Origin: Candidatus Heimdallarchaeota archaeon B3_Heim | GTDB taxonomy: Archaea > Asgardarchaeota > Heimdallarchaeia > Hodarchaeales > Hodarchaeaceae | Direction of reading: 5' to 3' | Assembly (NCBI GenBank): GCA_003144275.1 | Contig: NJBF01000009.1 | Coordinates: forward strand, 37,653-69,652 | Length of the DNA stretch: 32,000 nucleotides | Shown here: positions 15,119-22,401 of the stretch, piece by piece | Layout of the letters: each line of letters begins with the position of its first letter | Position numbering within the stretch: position 1 is the stretch's first letter | The notes under the pieces: generated by a model | Databases searched by the model: none | What the model saw: only the letters and a program-made list of their open reading frames with translations | What the model was told of the DNA's origin: nothing | Translations under genes and position numbers: made by a program

Positions 15119-17725
15119 TTATTGGGGGATTTCTAGTTTATCGATAAGAAGAGTGATCTTCTTTTCACTTTTTGTCTCACCTATTGCTATTGTTATCCTC
15201 TGAATCCCTTCTAGTTCATGAATTATTCCATTGAGGAAAGATAAAATGTCCCCAGGATATATAAGAAGATCAAATTGCGAGAAACTCCGGGAAATTTGAT
15301 TAATATTCTTCCCCTCTAACCTTTTATTGACAATGAATCTCCCGATCTGCTCGGAACCATGAACACAAAATGGGTTTTCTTTACATGTGCATGTGAAGAA
15401 GTTCTGAGTCCATTTGGCGAATGTTGTCAAACACCATTTATTGAGTTCTGTTGCTTCTTTTCCTTTTAAGGAAGCGTTCATTACATCCAAGACTGGACTA
15501 TTGATCAATCGTGTTGAAAATCTCATGTGATATGTCTTCTCAAGATAAGCATGGAGTTTTTTTGACAAATAAACATTCTGTGGATGGTTCATTTCGAGTG
15601 CAATTGATAAAAAATGTTCTTTTTTCTTGATCAAGGACCTTATTGCAATTGTTTTTTCAGGGGAAAAAAAAGAGAGAGCTGAAGCCTTGCCCAAAGGAGT
15701 TACCTCTAAATAGCGATGCTTTTCTTTGGTTCTAATGGAAATTAGGTCATTACGAATTAATTTATTCGTAATATTCATGAAATTATGATTGCCAGTCCCA
15801 ATCATATTTTGGTAGATCTTTTTGACCTCAGTTGGTAACATTTTCATCTTTGTAGAACAAATAGAAATAATTTGTTCCCCACAAGCATTCTCGTCATAAT
15901 CAGGCGTTACTGGAGTAAGATCAGAATTTATTAACTCTAAAGCTATTTCTACTTCAGATTTTGAATCGAAGGAGGAAATAGAATCTCCCAAGCATAGAAA
16001 AACCGCATATCCTCGGTCGTGCTTTCCTAATCTACCTGCTCGCCCAATCATCTGAGTAAAGGTATTTGGATCAAGTATTTGATTCCCCATCATCATTGAT
16101 TCGAATATTACTTGTGAGGCTGGAAAATCTACACCAGCACCGAGTGCATAAGTAGCAACAATAGCTGTACATTTTCCCGAGGAGAATTCTAACTCAATTC
16201 GCTTTCGAAGTGAATAAGAGAGACCTGAATGATAAGCTTGAGCATTTCTTATCCCTGATTCGCGTAAAGCCTCAGAAATTTCACTTGTTTTCCTTCTAGA
16301 ATTAGTAAAAATTATTGTTTGTCCCTTAAATCCATTTTTTGATATTGTTTTTAGCTCTGCAAAGACCAAAGTAGCTATTTGTCTATTTTTCTCATGACTA
16401 CCTCTTGAAATAAGCAAATGCTGTTCTAATGGAATTGGTCTATGATCGACTGTAACTAATTTCAATGAAAGTTCATTCGCAAATTGGACTGGATTTCCAA
16501 TTGTTGCTGATAATCCTATTATTTGAACATTCTTCGAATAATATCTTATTTTCGCTTGTAAACAGTCTAAAGTTGGCCCCCGTTCAGAATCAGCCAGAGA
16601 TTGTATTTCATCAATTGCAATACAACCAATTTCATCAAAATTTATTTGTCCCCCGCGAATTAAAAGATCTAAACCTTCATAAGTAGCGATTACTACATCT
16701 GAATCTTTGATTGAGAATCGAAGTTTATAGAAATCTTTTTTCTCCTTAAAAGAATCGAAAATACGAGATCTTCCAGTACGTATACCGATCCGTAATTTAT
16801 CACCATAAAATTTTTTGAAGTCTTCATATTTTGTATTGGCTAGAGCCACTAAAGGGACAATGAAAACAAATTTTTTTCTCTTGAGTGAAGTTCTAATCCC
16901 AGCAATTTCTGCTATTAGCGTTTTTCCTGCGCTTGTATTAGCGATAATTAACAGATTGTTGTTTTCAAGTAATCCTTTCTTTAAAGCCTCTGCCTGGATT
17001 GGTAATAGACTTTCTATTCCACGTTTTTTTAAGGATTTCTTTAAAAACCTATCGATTTGTGTATTCTGAACCGAACGTACCTCACCAAGCGTATTTGTTG
17101 TCTCTACTTTCTTTATTAGTGTCAAATCACTAAGTTTTGCATTTCCCTGAGTTAATGTCTCAGTTACTGGATGTATATCATGAAAACGATCCAGAATCGA
17201 AACCGCGTATTTTTTAAAACCTGGATTTTCTAGAAGATTAATTTTTTTTGACAGAAGTTCCTTTTCTAATTCCTGCATGGCACAAGCTTTGCATACTTCC
17301 CGATCATAGGCTTTGTAGTTGCCTTCTGTTTTTAGTAATGTAATTTTTTCCGTTAATAGACAGAATGGGCAAAAATTTCGTTCTGAGAATTTTATAGGAA
17401 GAGAGAAGTCTTTACAAAATCGCTTTAATCCATCTTTTTCTTTATTGGATAGATCGGTGGTTAGAAAAATGTATTTTGCAGTAGTAATTATTTCCTGAAT
17501 CGTATTTTTTGCTGGATATGCTTTCCATTTCCCTTGTTCCTCCCAGAAAATGCGACGTGGCCGCCACATTATCTCTCTTTTGTAAAAATAGACAATCCTA
17601 CCCTTGAAGCGAGGTTTTCTCTGAATTAACCTTCCCTTTGTAAACCCCAGAATTTGGAGGGTATTTTCTTGCTTGGAAGGAGCGAATACAATAGTATAAA
17701 TAGATGAATTAGGAGACATACCCAT
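15119..17725 (-). CDS. Archaea-specific Ski2-like SF2 helicase (ASH-Ski2 / COG1202 / DUF5814 type)
   Basis: LLPIQ Q-motif, ANTSAGKT, DEIQ, SAT, AYHSGL, QMIGRAGR. N-terminal CPFC...CKAC Zn motif and C-terminal CTCKENPFC motif. Confidence 0.85.
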   Translation of the reverse strand: MGMSPNSSIYTIVFAPSKQENTLQILGFTKGRLIQRKPRFKGRIVYFYKREIMWRPRRIFWEEQGKWKAYPAKNTIQEIITTAKYIFLTTDLSNKEKDGLKRFCKDFSLPIKFSERNFCPFCLLTEKITLLKTEGNYKAYDREVCKACAMQELEKELLSKKINLLENPGFKKYAVSILDRFHDIHPVTETLTQGNAKLSDLTLIKKVETTNTLGEVRSVQNTQIDRFLKKSLKKRGIESLLPIQAEALKKGLLENNNLLIIANTSAGKTLIAEIAGIRTSLKRKKFVFIVPLVALANTKYEDFKKFYGDKLRIGIRTGRSRIFDSFKEKKDFYKLRFSIKDSDVVIATYEGLDLLIRGGQINFDEIGCIAIDEIQSLADSERGPTLDCLQAKIRYYSKNVQIIGLSATIGNPVQFANELSLKLVTVDHRPIPLEQHLLISRGSHEKNRQIATLVFAELKTISKNGFKGQTIIFTNSRRKTSEISEALRESGIRNAQAYHSGLSYSLRKRIELEFSSGKCTAIVATYALGAGVDFPASQVIFESMMMGNQILDPNTFTQMIGRAGRLGKHDRGYAVFLCLGDSISSFDSKSEVEIALELINSDLTPVTPDYDENACGEQIISICSTKMKMLPTEVKKIYQNMIGTGNHNFMNITNKLIRNDLISIRTKEKHRYLEVTPLGKASALSFFSPEKTIAIRSLIKKKEHFLSIALEMNHPQNVYLSKKLHAYLEKTYHMRFSTRLINSPVLDVMNASLKGKEATELNKWCLTTFAKWTQNFFTCTCKENPFCVHGSEQIGRFIVNKRLEGKNINQISRSFSQFDLLIYPGDILSFLNGIIHELEGIQRITIAIGETKSEKKITLLIDKLEIPQ

Positions 17726-17818
17726 TAGAATGAGGATTGTACCTAGTAAAAAAGCAAAGTGTTAAAAATTATGAGTTATTCCCTATGATCAAAGATACAT
17801 CACAATGAGGAGTTAATA

Positions 17819-18292
17819 ATGCCAATTTGTTCCAAATGTGGATCCTATTTTAGTGAAGCTTCATGTACATTTTGTACCCCCGATGATTCTCCCAAATCCC
17901 CTGTGTCGACAGTAAATGTTGAAGAAAAGAGTTCAGTGAGATTAATCGATCCAATTGAATTACTCGACTCAATAGAGAAGACTGAAGCGAGTTTAAATCA
18001 ATTAAAAGAAGTTAAAACGGTAGAAATTAAGGAAGTTAAATCTGAAATTTCTACCCTTCAAGAAAAAGAAAAAACCCTAGTTTCGGATTTAGAACCCCTG
18101 AAATCACAGATTTCGCAGCTAGAATCCTCTTTGAAGGAAAAGGAGGAGGAATATAATGTTGTTACAGGTAATAATCAAAGCTTGCTAGAAGAAACGAATG
18201 CTCTCAAAGCAAGAATTCTTAGCCTTGAAACTAACAAAGCTACATTAGAAGAAGAAGTGAATGAGCTGAAAAATACCCTCGGAGTGGAATAA
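17819..18292 (+). CDS. Zn-finger (CxxC-x8-CxxC) plus long coiled-coil protein, paralog 1
   Basis: MPICSKCGSYFSEASCTFC followed by about 110 aa of heptad repeats. SD GAGGAG at 17807-17812. Confidence 0.75.
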   Translation: MPICSKCGSYFSEASCTFCTPDDSPKSPVSTVNVEEKSSVRLIDPIELLDSIEKTEASLNQLKEVKTVEIKEVKSEISTLQEKEKTLVSDLEPLKSQISQLESSLKEKEEEYNVVTGNNQSLLEETNALKARILSLETNKATLEEEVNELKNTLGVE

Positions 18293-18294
18293 AA

Positions 18295-18756
18295 ATGCCA
18301 ACATGTCTTAAGTGTGGTTCATACTATATTCGGGCACCCTGTCCTGTCTGTTCTCCACCCGGGGTGGGACAATTAATCGAAGATTCAAAGGAAGCTAAAG
18401 GAAAATCGATTGAAGATCTTCAGAAAGAACTACAAGAATTGAATTCAAAGTTGAAGAATCAAGAAACGGAATTTGATCAGCAAATTAGAGATTTTAAAAC
18501 ACAAATTCAATCACTAGAAGACCAGATTCAAAGCCTGGAAGTTTCCAAAATCAGTTTAAATGATCAGATAGGTAATCTTCAACAGGAGATTGAAATAAAG
18601 GTAAAAAGAACGGAAGAGGTTAGAAAACGCCTTTCAGATTTAGAATCAGAAAAAGGAGTAGCCTCAGAGAAAATCTCAGTATTGGAAAATGAGAACAATG
18701 CTCTAAAAGGGGACATTCAAACCTTTAATGAGAAAATACTGGAAAAAAAAGAATGA
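18295..18756 (+). CDS. Zn-finger (CxxC-x8-CxxC) plus long coiled-coil protein, paralog 2
   Basis: MPTCLKCGSYYIRAPCPVC followed by about 115 aa of heptad repeats, including QIQSLED-QIQSLEV. Starts 2 bp after the paralog 1 stop. Confidence 0.75.
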   Translation: MPTCLKCGSYYIRAPCPVCSPPGVGQLIEDSKEAKGKSIEDLQKELQELNSKLKNQETEFDQQIRDFKTQIQSLEDQIQSLEVSKISLNDQIGNLQQEIEIKVKRTEEVRKRLSDLESEKGVASEKISVLENENNALKGDIQTFNEKILEKKE

Positions 18757-18842: not shown

Positions 18843-19259
18843 TTGATGAGAGAAATGAAGAAACTCGCACAATTCGAGAGTAATTTTGACTCTTTTCAAT
18901 TGTTTGCTAATGTATATTCAAAACAAAATGGTCTAATCATAGATGTTGTTACCCCTAATGAACATTTAGGGGGTATAGGGGTAGGTCTACCATACATTCG
19001 TGCAAATGGTGCAAAGTCAGCCAATTTTCACTGCATTTCGATCCCAGCTCATAGAGATGCAGAACTAGCTGGTAAATTAGCTCAAATAATTGCTAAAAAC
19101 ACCGAAGTACCTGTGATAGTCCTTCTTGGCATTCACATTCCAAATATTTCTAAGAGCCAAATCCTTAAGCTCTCTCAGTTCTTTGAAAAGTGGTTTACAG
19201 AAATTAGCTTTAAATTAGCTAAGGATTCCTCTTTATATTCAAATAAAGCAAACCAATGA
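18843..19259 (+). CDS. LpdD-like / proteasome-assembly-chaperone (PAC3/PAC4)-fold small protein
   Basis: EHLGGIGVGLP, ISIPAHRDAELAGKLA and VLLGIHIPNIS match the H-[IL]-G-[AG], H-[KR]-[ED] and G-I-H pattern of LpdD-like proteins. Confidence 0.65.
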   Translation: MMREMKKLAQFESNFDSFQLFANVYSKQNGLIIDVVTPNEHLGGIGVGLPYIRANGAKSANFHCISIPAHRDAELAGKLAQIIAKNTEVPVIVLLGIHIPNISKSQILKLSQFFEKWFTEISFKLAKDSSLYSNKANQ

Positions 19260-22200
19260 AGGTAATCGCCATAATCAATATCATTGCTTCATGTAGCTGA
19301 ATGATGGGACTAGGGTTAAGAGTAGATACGATTTTAAATCCAGGAGCTAAACTACCTATTTTTAAGTTTGGAGAAATTCCAGTAGTAGTATACACTGCAA
19401 TTTCATAGGTATTTGGTGCTAAACTTGCTGGAGGTATTGATAATAAGTAGATATGAGTACCGTCGTCTTCAATAGCAGATGTGATACTTGGGAGAGACTG
19501 ATTAAGCCTTCCTATTTTGCCTTGTAAATCTAGTATGCCATAAAGATTAATATTTGGGACTGGAATGTTATTAAATTCAGAATTTACTACTTCAAAGGAA
19601 ATTGTAATGACTGAAGAAGTATCAATGGCATAAACATTCAAATCTCCTTGTTTGTTTATACCATAGTACTGTGTATTAGTAATAGCGAAGTCTCCAGAAA
19701 CAGTTATGTTATAATTAATATTACTCAAAGGATCCCTAGGATCTCGGGCAAATACATAGGAATTGTTCCATACTGATCTAATTTTGAATCGTGTTCCAAA
19801 TGTTGTCTCTGCAAGATTCGGATTAATCAATGCGCTCATGAAGATGGATTCATTTGCTTGAACCATTTTGAATCGTTGTATAAATATCGTTTCGTCAGAA
19901 AAGTTCACAAGTCCACCAATCATATCAACTTGTGAATCAGTGATATTGTAGATACCCGAGGGTGTGTCAATACCTACTACAAATGTTAGATTGAGACTTT
20001 CTCCATAGAATATTGTGTAGCTTTCAGACAAGGAGAGATTCCTATTATCAGTAACAAAGACTGATTGATATAAAACAGGGGTTCCTCCAAATCGAATATT
20101 TGTAAGTGTGCTGTTGGTAACCTTGCTAATTTGATAGCCTGAGGAAGTTTTCCAACTAAAACTAACTGAAAGATTATAAAAACCAGTAACAAATTGAATT
20201 GGACATAACTGATTGAGGCTCGTATAAATGTTGTCAGAATAATGCGACAATTTAACATCAAAGGCCTTTATCTGAGTTTCATTACTGATAAAGAGTAATG
20301 TAGCATTGGCTTTAGGTGTAAAGAAACCATTTGAATATTCTAGTGAAACATTAATATTTAGAGTATTACCTGGGTAGTATACAGGTATTTTGGTAATATT
20401 TACAAGTCTGACTACATCAGAAATCTCTAGAGGAAAAACTGTTGCTATTGATGTCAAGGAGTTATTAAAACTTAATGTAAGATCCCATGTACCCAGGAGT
20501 GAGTGATTATCAAAGAGGATCTTAAACTGAAAAGAGGTTGTCGTTGCATTCAAAGGTTCGTATGAAAGAAGATTTACAATCTGGTCATCGGGTGAAGTGA
20601 TATTTGCAGATAAACTACCAGTAGTGACATTTATCGTTTCATAAGTGATAACTGATCTATTTTGATAATAGATGGTTCCATTTAATGTATCACCCGGTTT
20701 AATTAAGGTAGGTGCGAAATCATATATTGGAGCATAACCTACAATGACTGTAGAATTTTGCAGATATACCGGAGAGCGTATAACAGGGAAATTTCGAATT
20801 GATAGGTGATTAACAATTTGATGAGAGCCAAGAGTCCAGTTAAAATCTCCATTGCTGTCGTTTTCAATATTTATCTTGTAAATAGCACTAGATTCCCTTG
20901 TGAAGACTTCATTATTCTCTGAATAGGAAGGATGCGTAATATCCCAATTATCAATTGTTGTAGTTAAGCTGAGAGAACCATGGGATTGATAGTCAAATGT
21001 ATCCATCCCTAAATTGATGGATGTTATTACTCCCTGAATAAGATAATTCGATTTATTGATAAATTGATTTTTTTGAAAATATGAGGTTTCTAAATCAAGT
21101 TCTATTGATTCAAAAAGAGATAGGGATAATAAATAGACCAAAGAGGAGTAATAGGTATCATGAATGTTCACTCTATTGTTGACTTCTAGTTGAGTATATG
21201 TTACATTATTTGGGCCAAATCCTCCAATGTCTCTTGCTTCAGTTTGGATATAAGTTCGATTTTCTCGTTTCAGGAATTGAGAAGAATTAACGAAATTTAA
21301 TGCCCCTATATGATCAATATCGTCAGTAATATTCAGTAAATGACTGATTGCATAAACGATTCCTGTTTCTTTCGTTGTTGCATTCTCATAGAAGCCATAT
21401 CCTCCTTCAGTCATTCCAGTACTTTTAAGAAATAAGGGTAACCAATTCTGTATTTGTGATTGATAATCAATTAGATTTTTTGGCGATGAAATTCCCAATA
21501 AAGTGGAAAAGTGTTCAAGAACAGCAATTGATTGTAGAGCATACCAAGTATCCTCAATTGGAGTACGATAGCTTGTATTGTCATAAAAATATGTGTTATT
21601 TACTAAAGTATCCTCAATAAAATTGAAAATATTTAATGAGTAATTGGTCATAAATTCCAGAATGGTTTGATTAACGGCTGGTGTAATTGAAGAATCTTTT
21701 ACATCTGAGATTACCTTGTAAATTAAATCTAGTATTGATAAAGCTTGAAACGTTGATTTAAGGTCAGCTTCGCTATCCCTCTCATGAAAACCAAAATTAT
21801 CTAGGTCAAATGTGTCCAGAATAGTGTAATTCATAATAGTTGGAGTTAATGGCTTTAATTTAAGTGTAAGTTCATCCATTAGCCAAAGGGCGTTAACAAC
21901 ACCGAAAGTACCCTCAAGGGAAGGAGTAGAAACTATAGAGCTGAGACGAAATCCTCCCGAATCCTCTTCATCTTTTAGGTCTATGATTAATTTGTCAGCT
22001 ATGGCTACTTCGTAATCTTGCCATTTAGAGTAAAATTGATAATAATCCAAACCGAATATGCGCAAAACTGCCAATGCTTCATACGTAGCAATTGATGTAG
22101 AATACCCATCTACCGACTCAAAGAAAATTGCTTGAGTTGAATCGTAAAGACTGTCAATGTAATCCGCTAAAGCTTCTAGATCAAAGGAATAATTACCAAT

Positions 22201-22401
22201 GAAATTCTTTTCTTCTAGCATACTATACCTAATCTCATCTGAAGTTGTTTCATTAGTAAATTCATTTGATGCTTTTTGGTATTCGTACAATGAGGCATCT
22301 GAACCGGATAAAACAGTTAAAGGAAGAATCACTAAGATTATAAGAAGTGTTCCTTCGACCCTTTTCCGATATTTATTTATTTGGTTTCTACGGATGAGCA
22401 T
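19219..22401 (-). CDS. Large membrane-anchored surface glycoprotein: prenyltransferase/squalene-cyclase-like alpha/alpha repeats, Ig-like domains and a C-terminal TM
   Basis: N-terminal basic + hydrophobic signal; six T-[aromatic]-x-A-L-type helical repeats; beta-rich C-terminal half; TM HEAMILIMAITFIGLLYL then KRNP; about 35 N-x-S/T sequons. Confidence 0.7.
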   Translation of the reverse strand: MLIRRNQINKYRKRVEGTLLIILVILPLTVLSGSDASLYEYQKASNEFTNETTSDEIRYSMLEEKNFIGNYSFDLEALADYIDSLYDSTQAIFFESVDGYSTSIATYEALAVLRIFGLDYYQFYSKWQDYEVAIADKLIIDLKDEEDSGGFRLSSIVSTPSLEGTFGVVNALWLMDELTLKLKPLTPTIMNYTILDTFDLDNFGFHERDSEADLKSTFQALSILDLIYKVISDVKDSSITPAVNQTILEFMTNYSLNIFNFIEDTLVNNTYFYDNTSYRTPIEDTWYALQSIAVLEHFSTLLGISSPKNLIDYQSQIQNWLPLFLKSTGMTEGGYGFYENATTKETGIVYAISHLLNITDDIDHIGALNFVNSSQFLKRENRTYIQTEARDIGGFGPNNVTYTQLEVNNRVNIHDTYYSSLVYLLSLSLFESIELDLETSYFQKNQFINKSNYLIQGVITSINLGMDTFDYQSHGSLSLTTTIDNWDITHPSYSENNEVFTRESSAIYKINIENDSNGDFNWTLGSHQIVNHLSIRNFPVIRSPVYLQNSTVIVGYAPIYDFAPTLIKPGDTLNGTIYYQNRSVITYETINVTTGSLSANITSPDDQIVNLLSYEPLNATTTSFQFKILFDNHSLLGTWDLTLSFNNSLTSIATVFPLEISDVVRLVNITKIPVYYPGNTLNINVSLEYSNGFFTPKANATLLFISNETQIKAFDVKLSHYSDNIYTSLNQLCPIQFVTGFYNLSVSFSWKTSSGYQISKVTNSTLTNIRFGGTPVLYQSVFVTDNRNLSLSESYTIFYGESLNLTFVVGIDTPSGIYNITDSQVDMIGGLVNFSDETIFIQRFKMVQANESIFMSALINPNLAETTFGTRFKIRSVWNNSYVFARDPRDPLSNINYNITVSGDFAITNTQYYGINKQGDLNVYAIDTSSVITISFEVVNSEFNNIPVPNINLYGILDLQGKIGRLNQSLPSITSAIEDDGTHIYLLSIPPASLAPNTYEIAVYTTTGISPNLKIGSLAPGFKIVSTLNPSPIIQLHEAMILIMAITFIGLLYLNIKRNP

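Follow-up and report, generated by a model that had tools for sequence, protein, structure and literature searches.

A Hodarchaeales gene pair predicted to encode zinc-headed coiled-coil rods, with Nop10-type heads and an ASH-Ski2-like helicase as neighbour

Adaptors that combine zinc knuckles with a coiled coil are known from eukaryotic Ski2-family helicases, for example ZCCHC8 of NEXT and Air1/2 of TRAMP. Small archaeal proteins that join a Zn ribbon to a coiled coil have also been described: in Thermoproteales, the adjacent paralogues arCOG03733 and arCOG03734 combine a Zn ribbon, a long coiled coil and a CdvA-like hairpin, the Asgard family Znr_CC_PH_SB combines a Zn ribbon, a coiled coil, a PH domain and a steadiness box, and for both a resemblance to the ESCRT-I stalk has been noted (Makarova et al. 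2024, PMC10936438). Archaea furthermore possess ASH-Ski2, an archaea-specific Ski2-like RNA helicase with four N-terminal cysteines that is found in 38 of 42 Asgard genomes, while aRNase J, with which it partners in Euryarchaeota, is not present in Asgard (PMC10946056). Here we analyse two adjacent genes, termed A and B, that lie next to an ASH-Ski2-like helicase gene in a stretch of 32,000 nucleotides (the window) from Candidatus Heimdallarchaeota archaeon B3_Heim (contig NJBF01000009.1, positions 37,653 to 69,652). The source genome is a Hodarchaeales (Heimdallarchaeia, Asgard) metagenome assembly of 3.95 Mb, 36% G+C and 94% completeness. We favour the reading that the paralogues A and B belong as subunits to one Hodarchaeales-specific complex, an A-B rod with Nop10-type heads that would act as adaptor or tether in the context of the helicase, and we regard the evidence for this reading as standing about level with the evidence against it.

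The window contains the two open reading frames proposed in the initial annotation, both beginning with MP-x-C-x-K-C-G-S-Y-x5-C-x2-C (C4, C7, C16 and C19). Gene A (17819-18292, + strand) encodes 157 aa, with a zinc-ribbon head at aa 1-20, a linker at aa 21-44 and a coiled-coil helix at aa 45-154, and gene B (18295-18756, + strand) encodes 153 aa, with the head at aa 1-20, the linker at aa 21-38 and the helix at aa 39-152. The head of A, MPICSKCGSYFSEASCTFCT (17819-17878, + strand), has the CxxC-x8-CxxC pattern of a Nop10-type zinc ribbon, and both heads are predicted to bind zinc. The TAA stop of A (18290-18292) is followed by 'aa' and then by the ATG of B at 18295, which confirms the annotated spacing of 2 bp, and the annotated Shine-Dalgarno motif can be read before both genes: a putative GAGGAG for A (17807-17812, + strand), a candidate ribosome-binding site 6 nt ahead of the ATG, and a putative GGAG for B (18281-18284, + strand), situated within the 3' end of A and 10 nt ahead of the ATG, where it would allow translational coupling. 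The linkers, previously called proline-rich, do contain proline but are just moderately rich in it (TPDDSPKSPV in A, SPPGVG in B).

Orthologues of A are mostly exactly 157 aa long and share 33 invariant columns in the alignment, chiefly within aa 1-52, where the stretch MPICSKCGSYxSExSCPxCTPDDSPKSPVxTV..EE...RIIDPxELLxSIE includes the conserved linker (CTPDDSPKSPV..RIIDP); a second conserved patch, NQxLLEETNxLKARxLxLETEK, occupies positions 119-140 in the distal coil. Orthologues of B keep MPKCxxCGSYYIRxPCPVCSPPG..QLIEDS..KGKS (alignment A2), including the linker SPPGVGQLIEDSKE.KGKS, and range from 139 to 233 aa overall, with a variable and often acidic C-terminal tail. In three genomes (L021/G064, L025/G061 and L026/G060) the second knuckle of A reads CxC (SCPCTPDD, VCSCVSEED); these A proteins still hold four cysteines, and the B proteins of the same genomes are canonical.

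A and B align in BLASTP with 24% identity (E 5e-10), and comparison of the two family profiles by hhalign gives 98.8% probability (E 8.7e-17). By these comparisons the resemblance is beyond chance and A and B are paralogues, as the initial annotation had proposed for this tandem pair. Each protein is kept in ~20 genomes at about 35-98% identity, and the database homologues, which come from metagenome-assembled genomes of Hodarchaeales, Heimdallarchaeota or Promethearchaeota, are named just hypothetical proteins. The earlier statement that the pair has no obvious named family holds for Pfam and NCBIfam, which gave no family above cut-off for either protein; searches of Pfam, NCBIfam and PDB sequences with whole A and B returned sub-cut-off coiled-coil noise alone (ATG16, SMC, Rad50, lamin, the Beclin-2 coil and others). 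Foldseek with the model of B found no significant match in the PDB (the top row is Nop10 at E 7.9), and the ESM Atlas matches for the proteins all score <0.9 and count as leads only. A precomputed Pfam match, PF27954.1, is present on B and one orthologue (P0033, P0034).

We surveyed the pair in 83 genomes of the class Heimdallarchaeia. Of the 21 genomes that share the GTDB genus of the source genome, 20 have gene A, and so does one genome (G070) from a second Hodarchaeales genus. B follows directly on the same strand in every A-bearing genome of the genus (20/20) with a gap of -4 to +3 nt, which bears out the tight gene coupling proposed before and is compatible with translational coupling; in G070 the gap is 25 nt. 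A metagenome scan added one locus, contig L139, where another head-plus-coil gene lies 24 nt downstream of a more distant relative. Elsewhere in the 83 class genomes we found coil-only matches, and the pair was not found in the other Asgard families searched. Conservation of the pair across Asgard genomes, to which the initial annotation had pointed as a check, is thus seen in the genus, G070 and L139, but only within Hodarchaeales. The sole genus genome devoid of the pair, G057 (same genus label, a single contig of 96% completeness), is likewise without an orthologue of the ASH-Ski2-like helicase and without the syntenic phosphoglucomutase (PGM) gene. In an HMMER search over 1.84 billion representative proteins, giant coiled-coil proteins with no relation to the pair prevailed; in the list of the 150 best scores, only 17 representatives, all of 114-247 aa, match from profile position 1 or 2, and no fused A-B protein is found among these 17. 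An in-frame A-B read-through fusion occurs in no genome, since the reading frames differ.

Scanned alone, the 40-residue N termini match just generic zinc-ribbon families (DZR in 4/16) and Nop10p. When a profile of the head is compared with all PDB sequences, the top eight matches are archaeal Nop10 (E 5.5e-4 to 0.04), followed by Spt4, eIF2-gamma and others at non-significant E values; in one example from this search, iCskCGsYyirapCPvCs of the head is aligned to KCPKCGRYTLKETCPVCG of archaeal Nop10. The same profile retrieves Nop10 genes in other Asgard genomes, and in hhalign the head matches Asgard Nop10 with 93% over 21 columns. More specifically, the head conforms to the Nop10 ribbon motif CxKCGxYT[LI]Kx2CPxCG, and the two share an 18-residue ribbon, C-x-K-C-G-x-Y-x-[ILV]-[KR]-x-x-C-P-x-C, with x8 spacing. 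The likeness ends there: the C-terminal PPKFSP..Y..R helix region of Nop10, which binds Cbf5, is absent from A and B, which run on instead into a 110-residue coiled coil. The genome has its true Nop10 elsewhere (43.2 bits on Pfam Nop10p, PF04135). Second best on this model is a further head-bearing paralogue, C, with 20.2 bits against a cut-off of 27.2 (E 1.1e-3 on NCBIfam Nop10), and A and B are absent from the list of Nop10p matches of the genome, so that as whole proteins they fall outside Nop10. Because the true Nop10 is encoded elsewhere and the match is confined to the head, we assign the head, on its sequence, to the Nop10-type minimal zinc ribbons and do not count A and B as members of the Nop10 family. 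The genome's true Nop10 (L140:1480-1680:-, contig C57:13292-13438) has a CxC first knuckle (RKCECRYTV...CNLC), while six other Asgard Nop10 genes have CxxC; the heads of A, B and C are closer to the canonical Nop10-type motif than the genome's own Nop10 is.

The head is not confined to the pair. Its profile detects 2-6 copies in each of the 20 genus relatives searched and in each of the two sister-family genomes, with weaker matches in four other Heimdallarchaeial families. Family C has 156 aa in the source genome (L007:1102-1572:- on contig C100) and 214-243 aa in relatives (L082-L087, L101), and consists of the zinc head, a conserved motif, LTDR..(D/E)(E/D)(I/F)KPI(I/V)P..LQ..F.EPP(P/E)P (LTDR..IKPIIP.DLQE.F.EPPPP), a poly-Pro linker of up to ~100 residues and a C-terminal coil of ~60 residues. 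Heimdall profilin has been reported to bind polyproline, and family C could be a profilin- or SH3-type ligand. In G057 a short family-C gene (L088:497-1025:-) is split by a frameshift, either as a pseudogene or through an assembly error. The head further occurs on a Ras-family protein (L096:844-1536:+; Pfam Ras 27 bits, cut-off 21.6) of G069, a genome of the same order. In G070 it is followed by a similar-looking domain of ~200 aa ('FQIWLWDP', 'AAILLYTS'; L100:778-1509:+) that has no Pfam match. These two proteins may be small GTPases anchored via an N-terminal zinc ribbon. Two ABC-transporter ATPases (L112:138-2897:+ in G069 and L113:122-2164:+ in G070) carry the head ahead of disordered-looking, Ser/Thr/Pro/Lys-rich linkers of ~450-700 residues, and a 964-aa all-helical protein of G070 with no Pfam match (L111:279-3173:-) carries it as well. 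Because the head always sits at the extreme N terminus and is joined by flexible linkers to unrelated effector parts, the simplest reading is that it would be a portable docking or localisation module.

AlphaFold2, run on family alignments, predicts one helix in A (45-154, pLDDT >94) and one in B (39-152, pLDDT >91); the N-terminal element is modelled with a pLDDT of 57-61 in A, which is low confidence, and of 74-78 in B, and the linkers are poorly modelled. Of the uninterrupted run of about 110 aa of heptads and ~16 nm that had been proposed, the single helix and the length stand (110 residues x ~0.15 nm), but each coil is interrupted by one stutter ~20 residues from its start (between 62 and 70 in A, between 56 and 64 in B), after which 12 regular heptads follow in both chains. 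Positions a are L/I/V in 66% of cases in A, and I/L/V in 63% plus K in 21% in B; Leu fills 62-63% of positions d in both, and e and g are dominated by E/K. By the Harbury rules, such a/d composition is the pattern of parallel dimers. The a/d core and polar e/g positions agree with a parallel two-stranded coiled coil, which is the likeliest predicted state and orientation of the rod. Furthermore, the coils are equal in length (A 45-154, B 39-148) and their stutters lie at matching depth, and therefore they fit a parallel in-register pairing.

For the choice of partner we counted g-e' charge pairing, crudely, over 20 genomes. The net number of favourable pairs per position is +0.21 for A-B in register, +0.05 for A-A and +0.09 for B-B, while the 24 shifted registers all lie in the range from -0.17 to +0.11. 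Because of this pairing and the tight gene coupling, we lean towards an A-B heterodimer. Of the heterodimeric rod that was proposed at the outset, the parallel two-stranded rod is thus the likeliest form and A-B scores best in the crude charge count; the evidence for A-B is weak, and this pair has fewer hydrophobic layers than the homodimers.

The ASH-Ski2-like helicase gene (15119-17725, - strand) is divergent from A and encodes 868 aa with Pfam domains DEAD, Helicase_C and a C-terminal DUF5814. A cysteine cluster, CxxC...CxxC, is visible at the N terminus of the translation, and the protein matches Hel308/Ski2-type models just in part. Judged by description and Pfam domains, it fits the published account of ASH-Ski2 (COG1202). 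Genus-wide, the gene order is PGM, divergent helicase, A, B, a PAC-like gene and a gene for a 1060-aa surface protein; such genus-level synteny alone says little. In G070 the outer flanks differ on both sides and the helicase is still the divergent neighbour of the pair. On L139 a truncated upstream divergent open reading frame is collinear with helicase residues about 20-110 (E 1e-4 and 3e-4) and is probably the helicase N terminus. The pair is therefore divergent from an ASH-Ski2-like helicase gene in the genus, in G070 and probably on L139.

The divergent intergenic region between helicase and A measures 93 bp (17726-17818) and holds a BRE/TATA-like box, AAAGTGTTAAAAAT, at 17756-17769. Across the aligned helicase-A intergenic regions of nine relatives, AAAGTGTTAAAA and a GAGGA box are kept, and these would act as promoter and ribosome-binding site. 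Several relatives (G055, G056, G065, G062 and partly G049; alignment A7) have a near-palindromic ATGAAAAAACTTTTTTTATGA box between helicase and A, which is missing from the shorter 93-bp spacer of the window and of G053. On the other side of the pair, a proteasome-assembly-chaperone-like gene (PAC_bac; 18843-19259, + strand) lies downstream of B throughout the genus, followed by the convergent gene of the 1060-aa surface protein (19219-22401, - strand), the 3' ends of the two overlapping by 41 nt. We rejected a functional tie of the pair to the PAC-like gene because this neighbour is not kept in G070.

In the model that we favour, each chain would consist of a C4 ribbon of ~20 residues at the extreme N terminus, a linker of 18-25 residues and a helix of ~110 residues. 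The helices of A and B would pair in parallel and in register into a two-stranded coil of ~16 nm, with both zinc heads at one end of the rod and the variable acidic tail of B at the other. The heads would hold a common target while the distal coil patch (A 119-140) would hold something else; since the head recurs as a portable unit on proteins unrelated to the pair, the rod would serve as adaptor or tether. The most promising setting for it is the divergent ASH-Ski2-like RNA helicase, that is, RNA or ribonucleoprotein (RNP) metabolism.

Several observations weigh against this model. In charge pairing A-B gains only ~3 net salt bridges, there is no acid/base complementarity because each coil has a net negative charge (-4 to -16), and A-B would have ~11.5 fully hydrophobic core layers out of 23 where either homodimer would have ~16. 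The likeness of the head to Nop10 extends over just 18-21 residues and could have arisen by convergence between such minimal ribbons. As for the helicase, 186 of 201 Asgard genomes have it, but in 20 further Asgard families that were sampled its upstream neighbours are different and unrelated, with no small Zn-ribbon/coil gene upstream of ASH-Ski2 in any of the 20, and G069 has the helicase with Alba-like genes upstream and no pair. The link to the helicase is therefore lineage-restricted and may in part be inherited synteny within one order, and we consider a functional link between pair and helicase doubtful.

The acidity of both coils and the count of hydrophobic layers would also suit another arrangement, in which A and B became functionally separate after duplication, each forming a parallel homodimer or higher homo-oligomer, and their adjacency reflects tandem duplication and shared transcription. 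The linkers and the conserved coil patches do differ between A and B, and single head-plus-coil genes exist, for example family C and in G105. We nevertheless judge this arrangement unlikely, as the order of the genes and their tight coupling are retained where the proteins share just 35-40% identity and also in two more distant lineages, the two coils agree in length and in the depth of the stutter, and g-e' pairing is best for A-B. Furthermore, a B-B dimer would set the invariant lysines K85 and K120, which occupy a positions of B, against their own copies; with these included, polar-on-polar core layers number about 6 of 23 in the homodimers and ~1.5 in A-B.

A bolder version of the adaptor model takes the head as a general Heimdallarchaeia docking tag that would bring tethers, the Ras-like GTPase, the ABC ATPases and the helical protein to one hub, with A-B as the dedicated ASH-Ski2 adaptor. 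We think this rather improbable. If it were true, the A-B rod would fill the partner role of aRNase J in Euryarchaeota and of the zinc-knuckle-coiled-coil adaptors of eukaryotic Ski2-family helicases. The parallel with ZCCHC8 and Air1/2 is a possible functional analogy only, between small, Zn-binding, dimerising proteins that go with a Ski2-like helicase, which for A and B is a gene neighbour; the eukaryotic adaptors have CCHC knuckles in place of a C4 ribbon, and similarity in sequence was neither sought nor found.

The long helices might also suggest that the pair builds a cytoskeletal or scaffold filament of intermediate-filament or crescentin-like type, with the heads giving end-to-end or lateral contacts. 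The weak matches to filament and rod families on which this idea can draw, as it could for any coiled coil, are below curated cut-offs and limited to the coil; a rod of 110 residues is short, and neither the repeat organisation nor the head and tail domains typical of filament formers are present. The occurrence of the head on an ABC ATPase and a Ras-like protein moreover fits docking better than polymerisation, and a filament is improbable. Zinc ribbons often bind nucleic acids, and the pair might instead be a dimeric RNA- or DNA-binding regulator whose heads contact nucleic acid directly, rather than a protein adaptor. The neighbour is RNA-helicase-like and the closest ribbon, that of Nop10, sits in an RNP. 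This ribbon, however, mainly contacts the protein Cbf5, the heads of A and B are not basic (A, MPICSKCGSYFSEASCTFCT), and each protein as a whole is strongly acidic (-3 to -27), which leaves direct nucleic-acid binding with a low probability.

It is very improbable that the pair forms an ESCRT-I-like stalk of the Vps23/Vps37 type, analogous to arCOG03733/03734 or to Znr_CC_PH_SB. The Zn-ribbon-plus-coil layout is alike and, compared by description only, the Thermoproteales proteins are likewise small adjacent paralogues with an N-terminal Zn ribbon and a long coiled coil. These known families, however, have a CdvA-like or steadiness-box hairpin (and PH in the Asgard family) and ESCRT contexts, whereas A and B have neither hairpin, and AlphaFold2 predicts one helix to the C terminus; in the Thermoproteales pair one member only has the ribbon, whereas A and B both carry it, end in a plain helix and have a helicase as neighbour. 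Vps23_core (PF09454) has no match on A or B, Mod_r/Vps37 (PF07200) reaches 10.8 bits on B and is equally weak in 13 of 14 control genomes, and no ESCRT genes lie within the window.

The initial annotation had compared the pair with Atg14, noting that the spacing of its cysteines is also common in generic zinc ribbons. Atg14 has the x8 spacing in its Cys motif. The commonness of the spacing proved right, as the head matches are to generic zinc ribbons and Nop10. These were the only matches in the profile check of the N-terminal 40 aa, an outcome that the initial annotation had named as refuting, and the Atg14 lead is not supported. The CxxC-x8-CxxC pattern of A and B is equally that of Nop10 and other minimal zinc ribbons. 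Pfam ATG14 (PF10186) scores 19.3 bits on B in hmmscan and 13.7 bits in the genome search, against a cut-off of 33.2; the match spans the coil only (B residues 22-146), and the model matches weakly in 14 of 14 control genomes. The models for APG6/Beclin (PF04111) and PI3-kinase (PF00454) recover nothing from the 94%-complete genome at an E-value limit of 1. The PDB searches contain no ATG14 chain either, and for the head this holds up to an E value of 10. A and B end where the coil ends, with no C-terminal domain.

In Atg14/Vps38, as in A and B, an N-terminal four-Cys motif precedes a coiled coil, which in Atg14 pairs with a partner while the conserved cysteine repeats are needed for targeting to the endoplasmic reticulum (PMC2928018). 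Despite this shared layout and the sub-threshold match on B, there is next to no chance that the archaeal proteins A and B are homologous to Atg14/Vps38, the subunit by which the class III PI3-kinase complex is targeted, as the idea failed every test run: sequence kinship is undetectable by scores or PDB searches, the partners were not found in the genome, the C-terminal domain is absent and the specific likeness of the head is to Nop10. The resemblance survives as an analogy alone, between a targeting Cys head with a pairing coil and what A and B may be; the tempting likeness is reduced to generic zinc-ribbon spacing plus coiled-coil noise.

The analysis adds two points to the first reading of the locus, the portable head of Nop10 type and the recurrence of ASH-Ski2 as neighbour. 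The pair itself represents a variant of the Zn-ribbon/coiled-coil theme that is lineage-specific and uncharacterised. Among known archaea, Hodarchaeales belong to those most closely related to eukaryotes, and how proteins are positioned in their cells is little understood. With a conserved zinc-headed two-gene rod, and the same head on GTPase-like, ABC-ATPase and poly-proline proteins, the targeting of proteins in this lineage becomes accessible to concrete tests. If it holds, the tie to ASH-Ski2 would bear on a point raised in PMC10946056, namely that Asgard archaea are without aRNase J, the known partner of this helicase.

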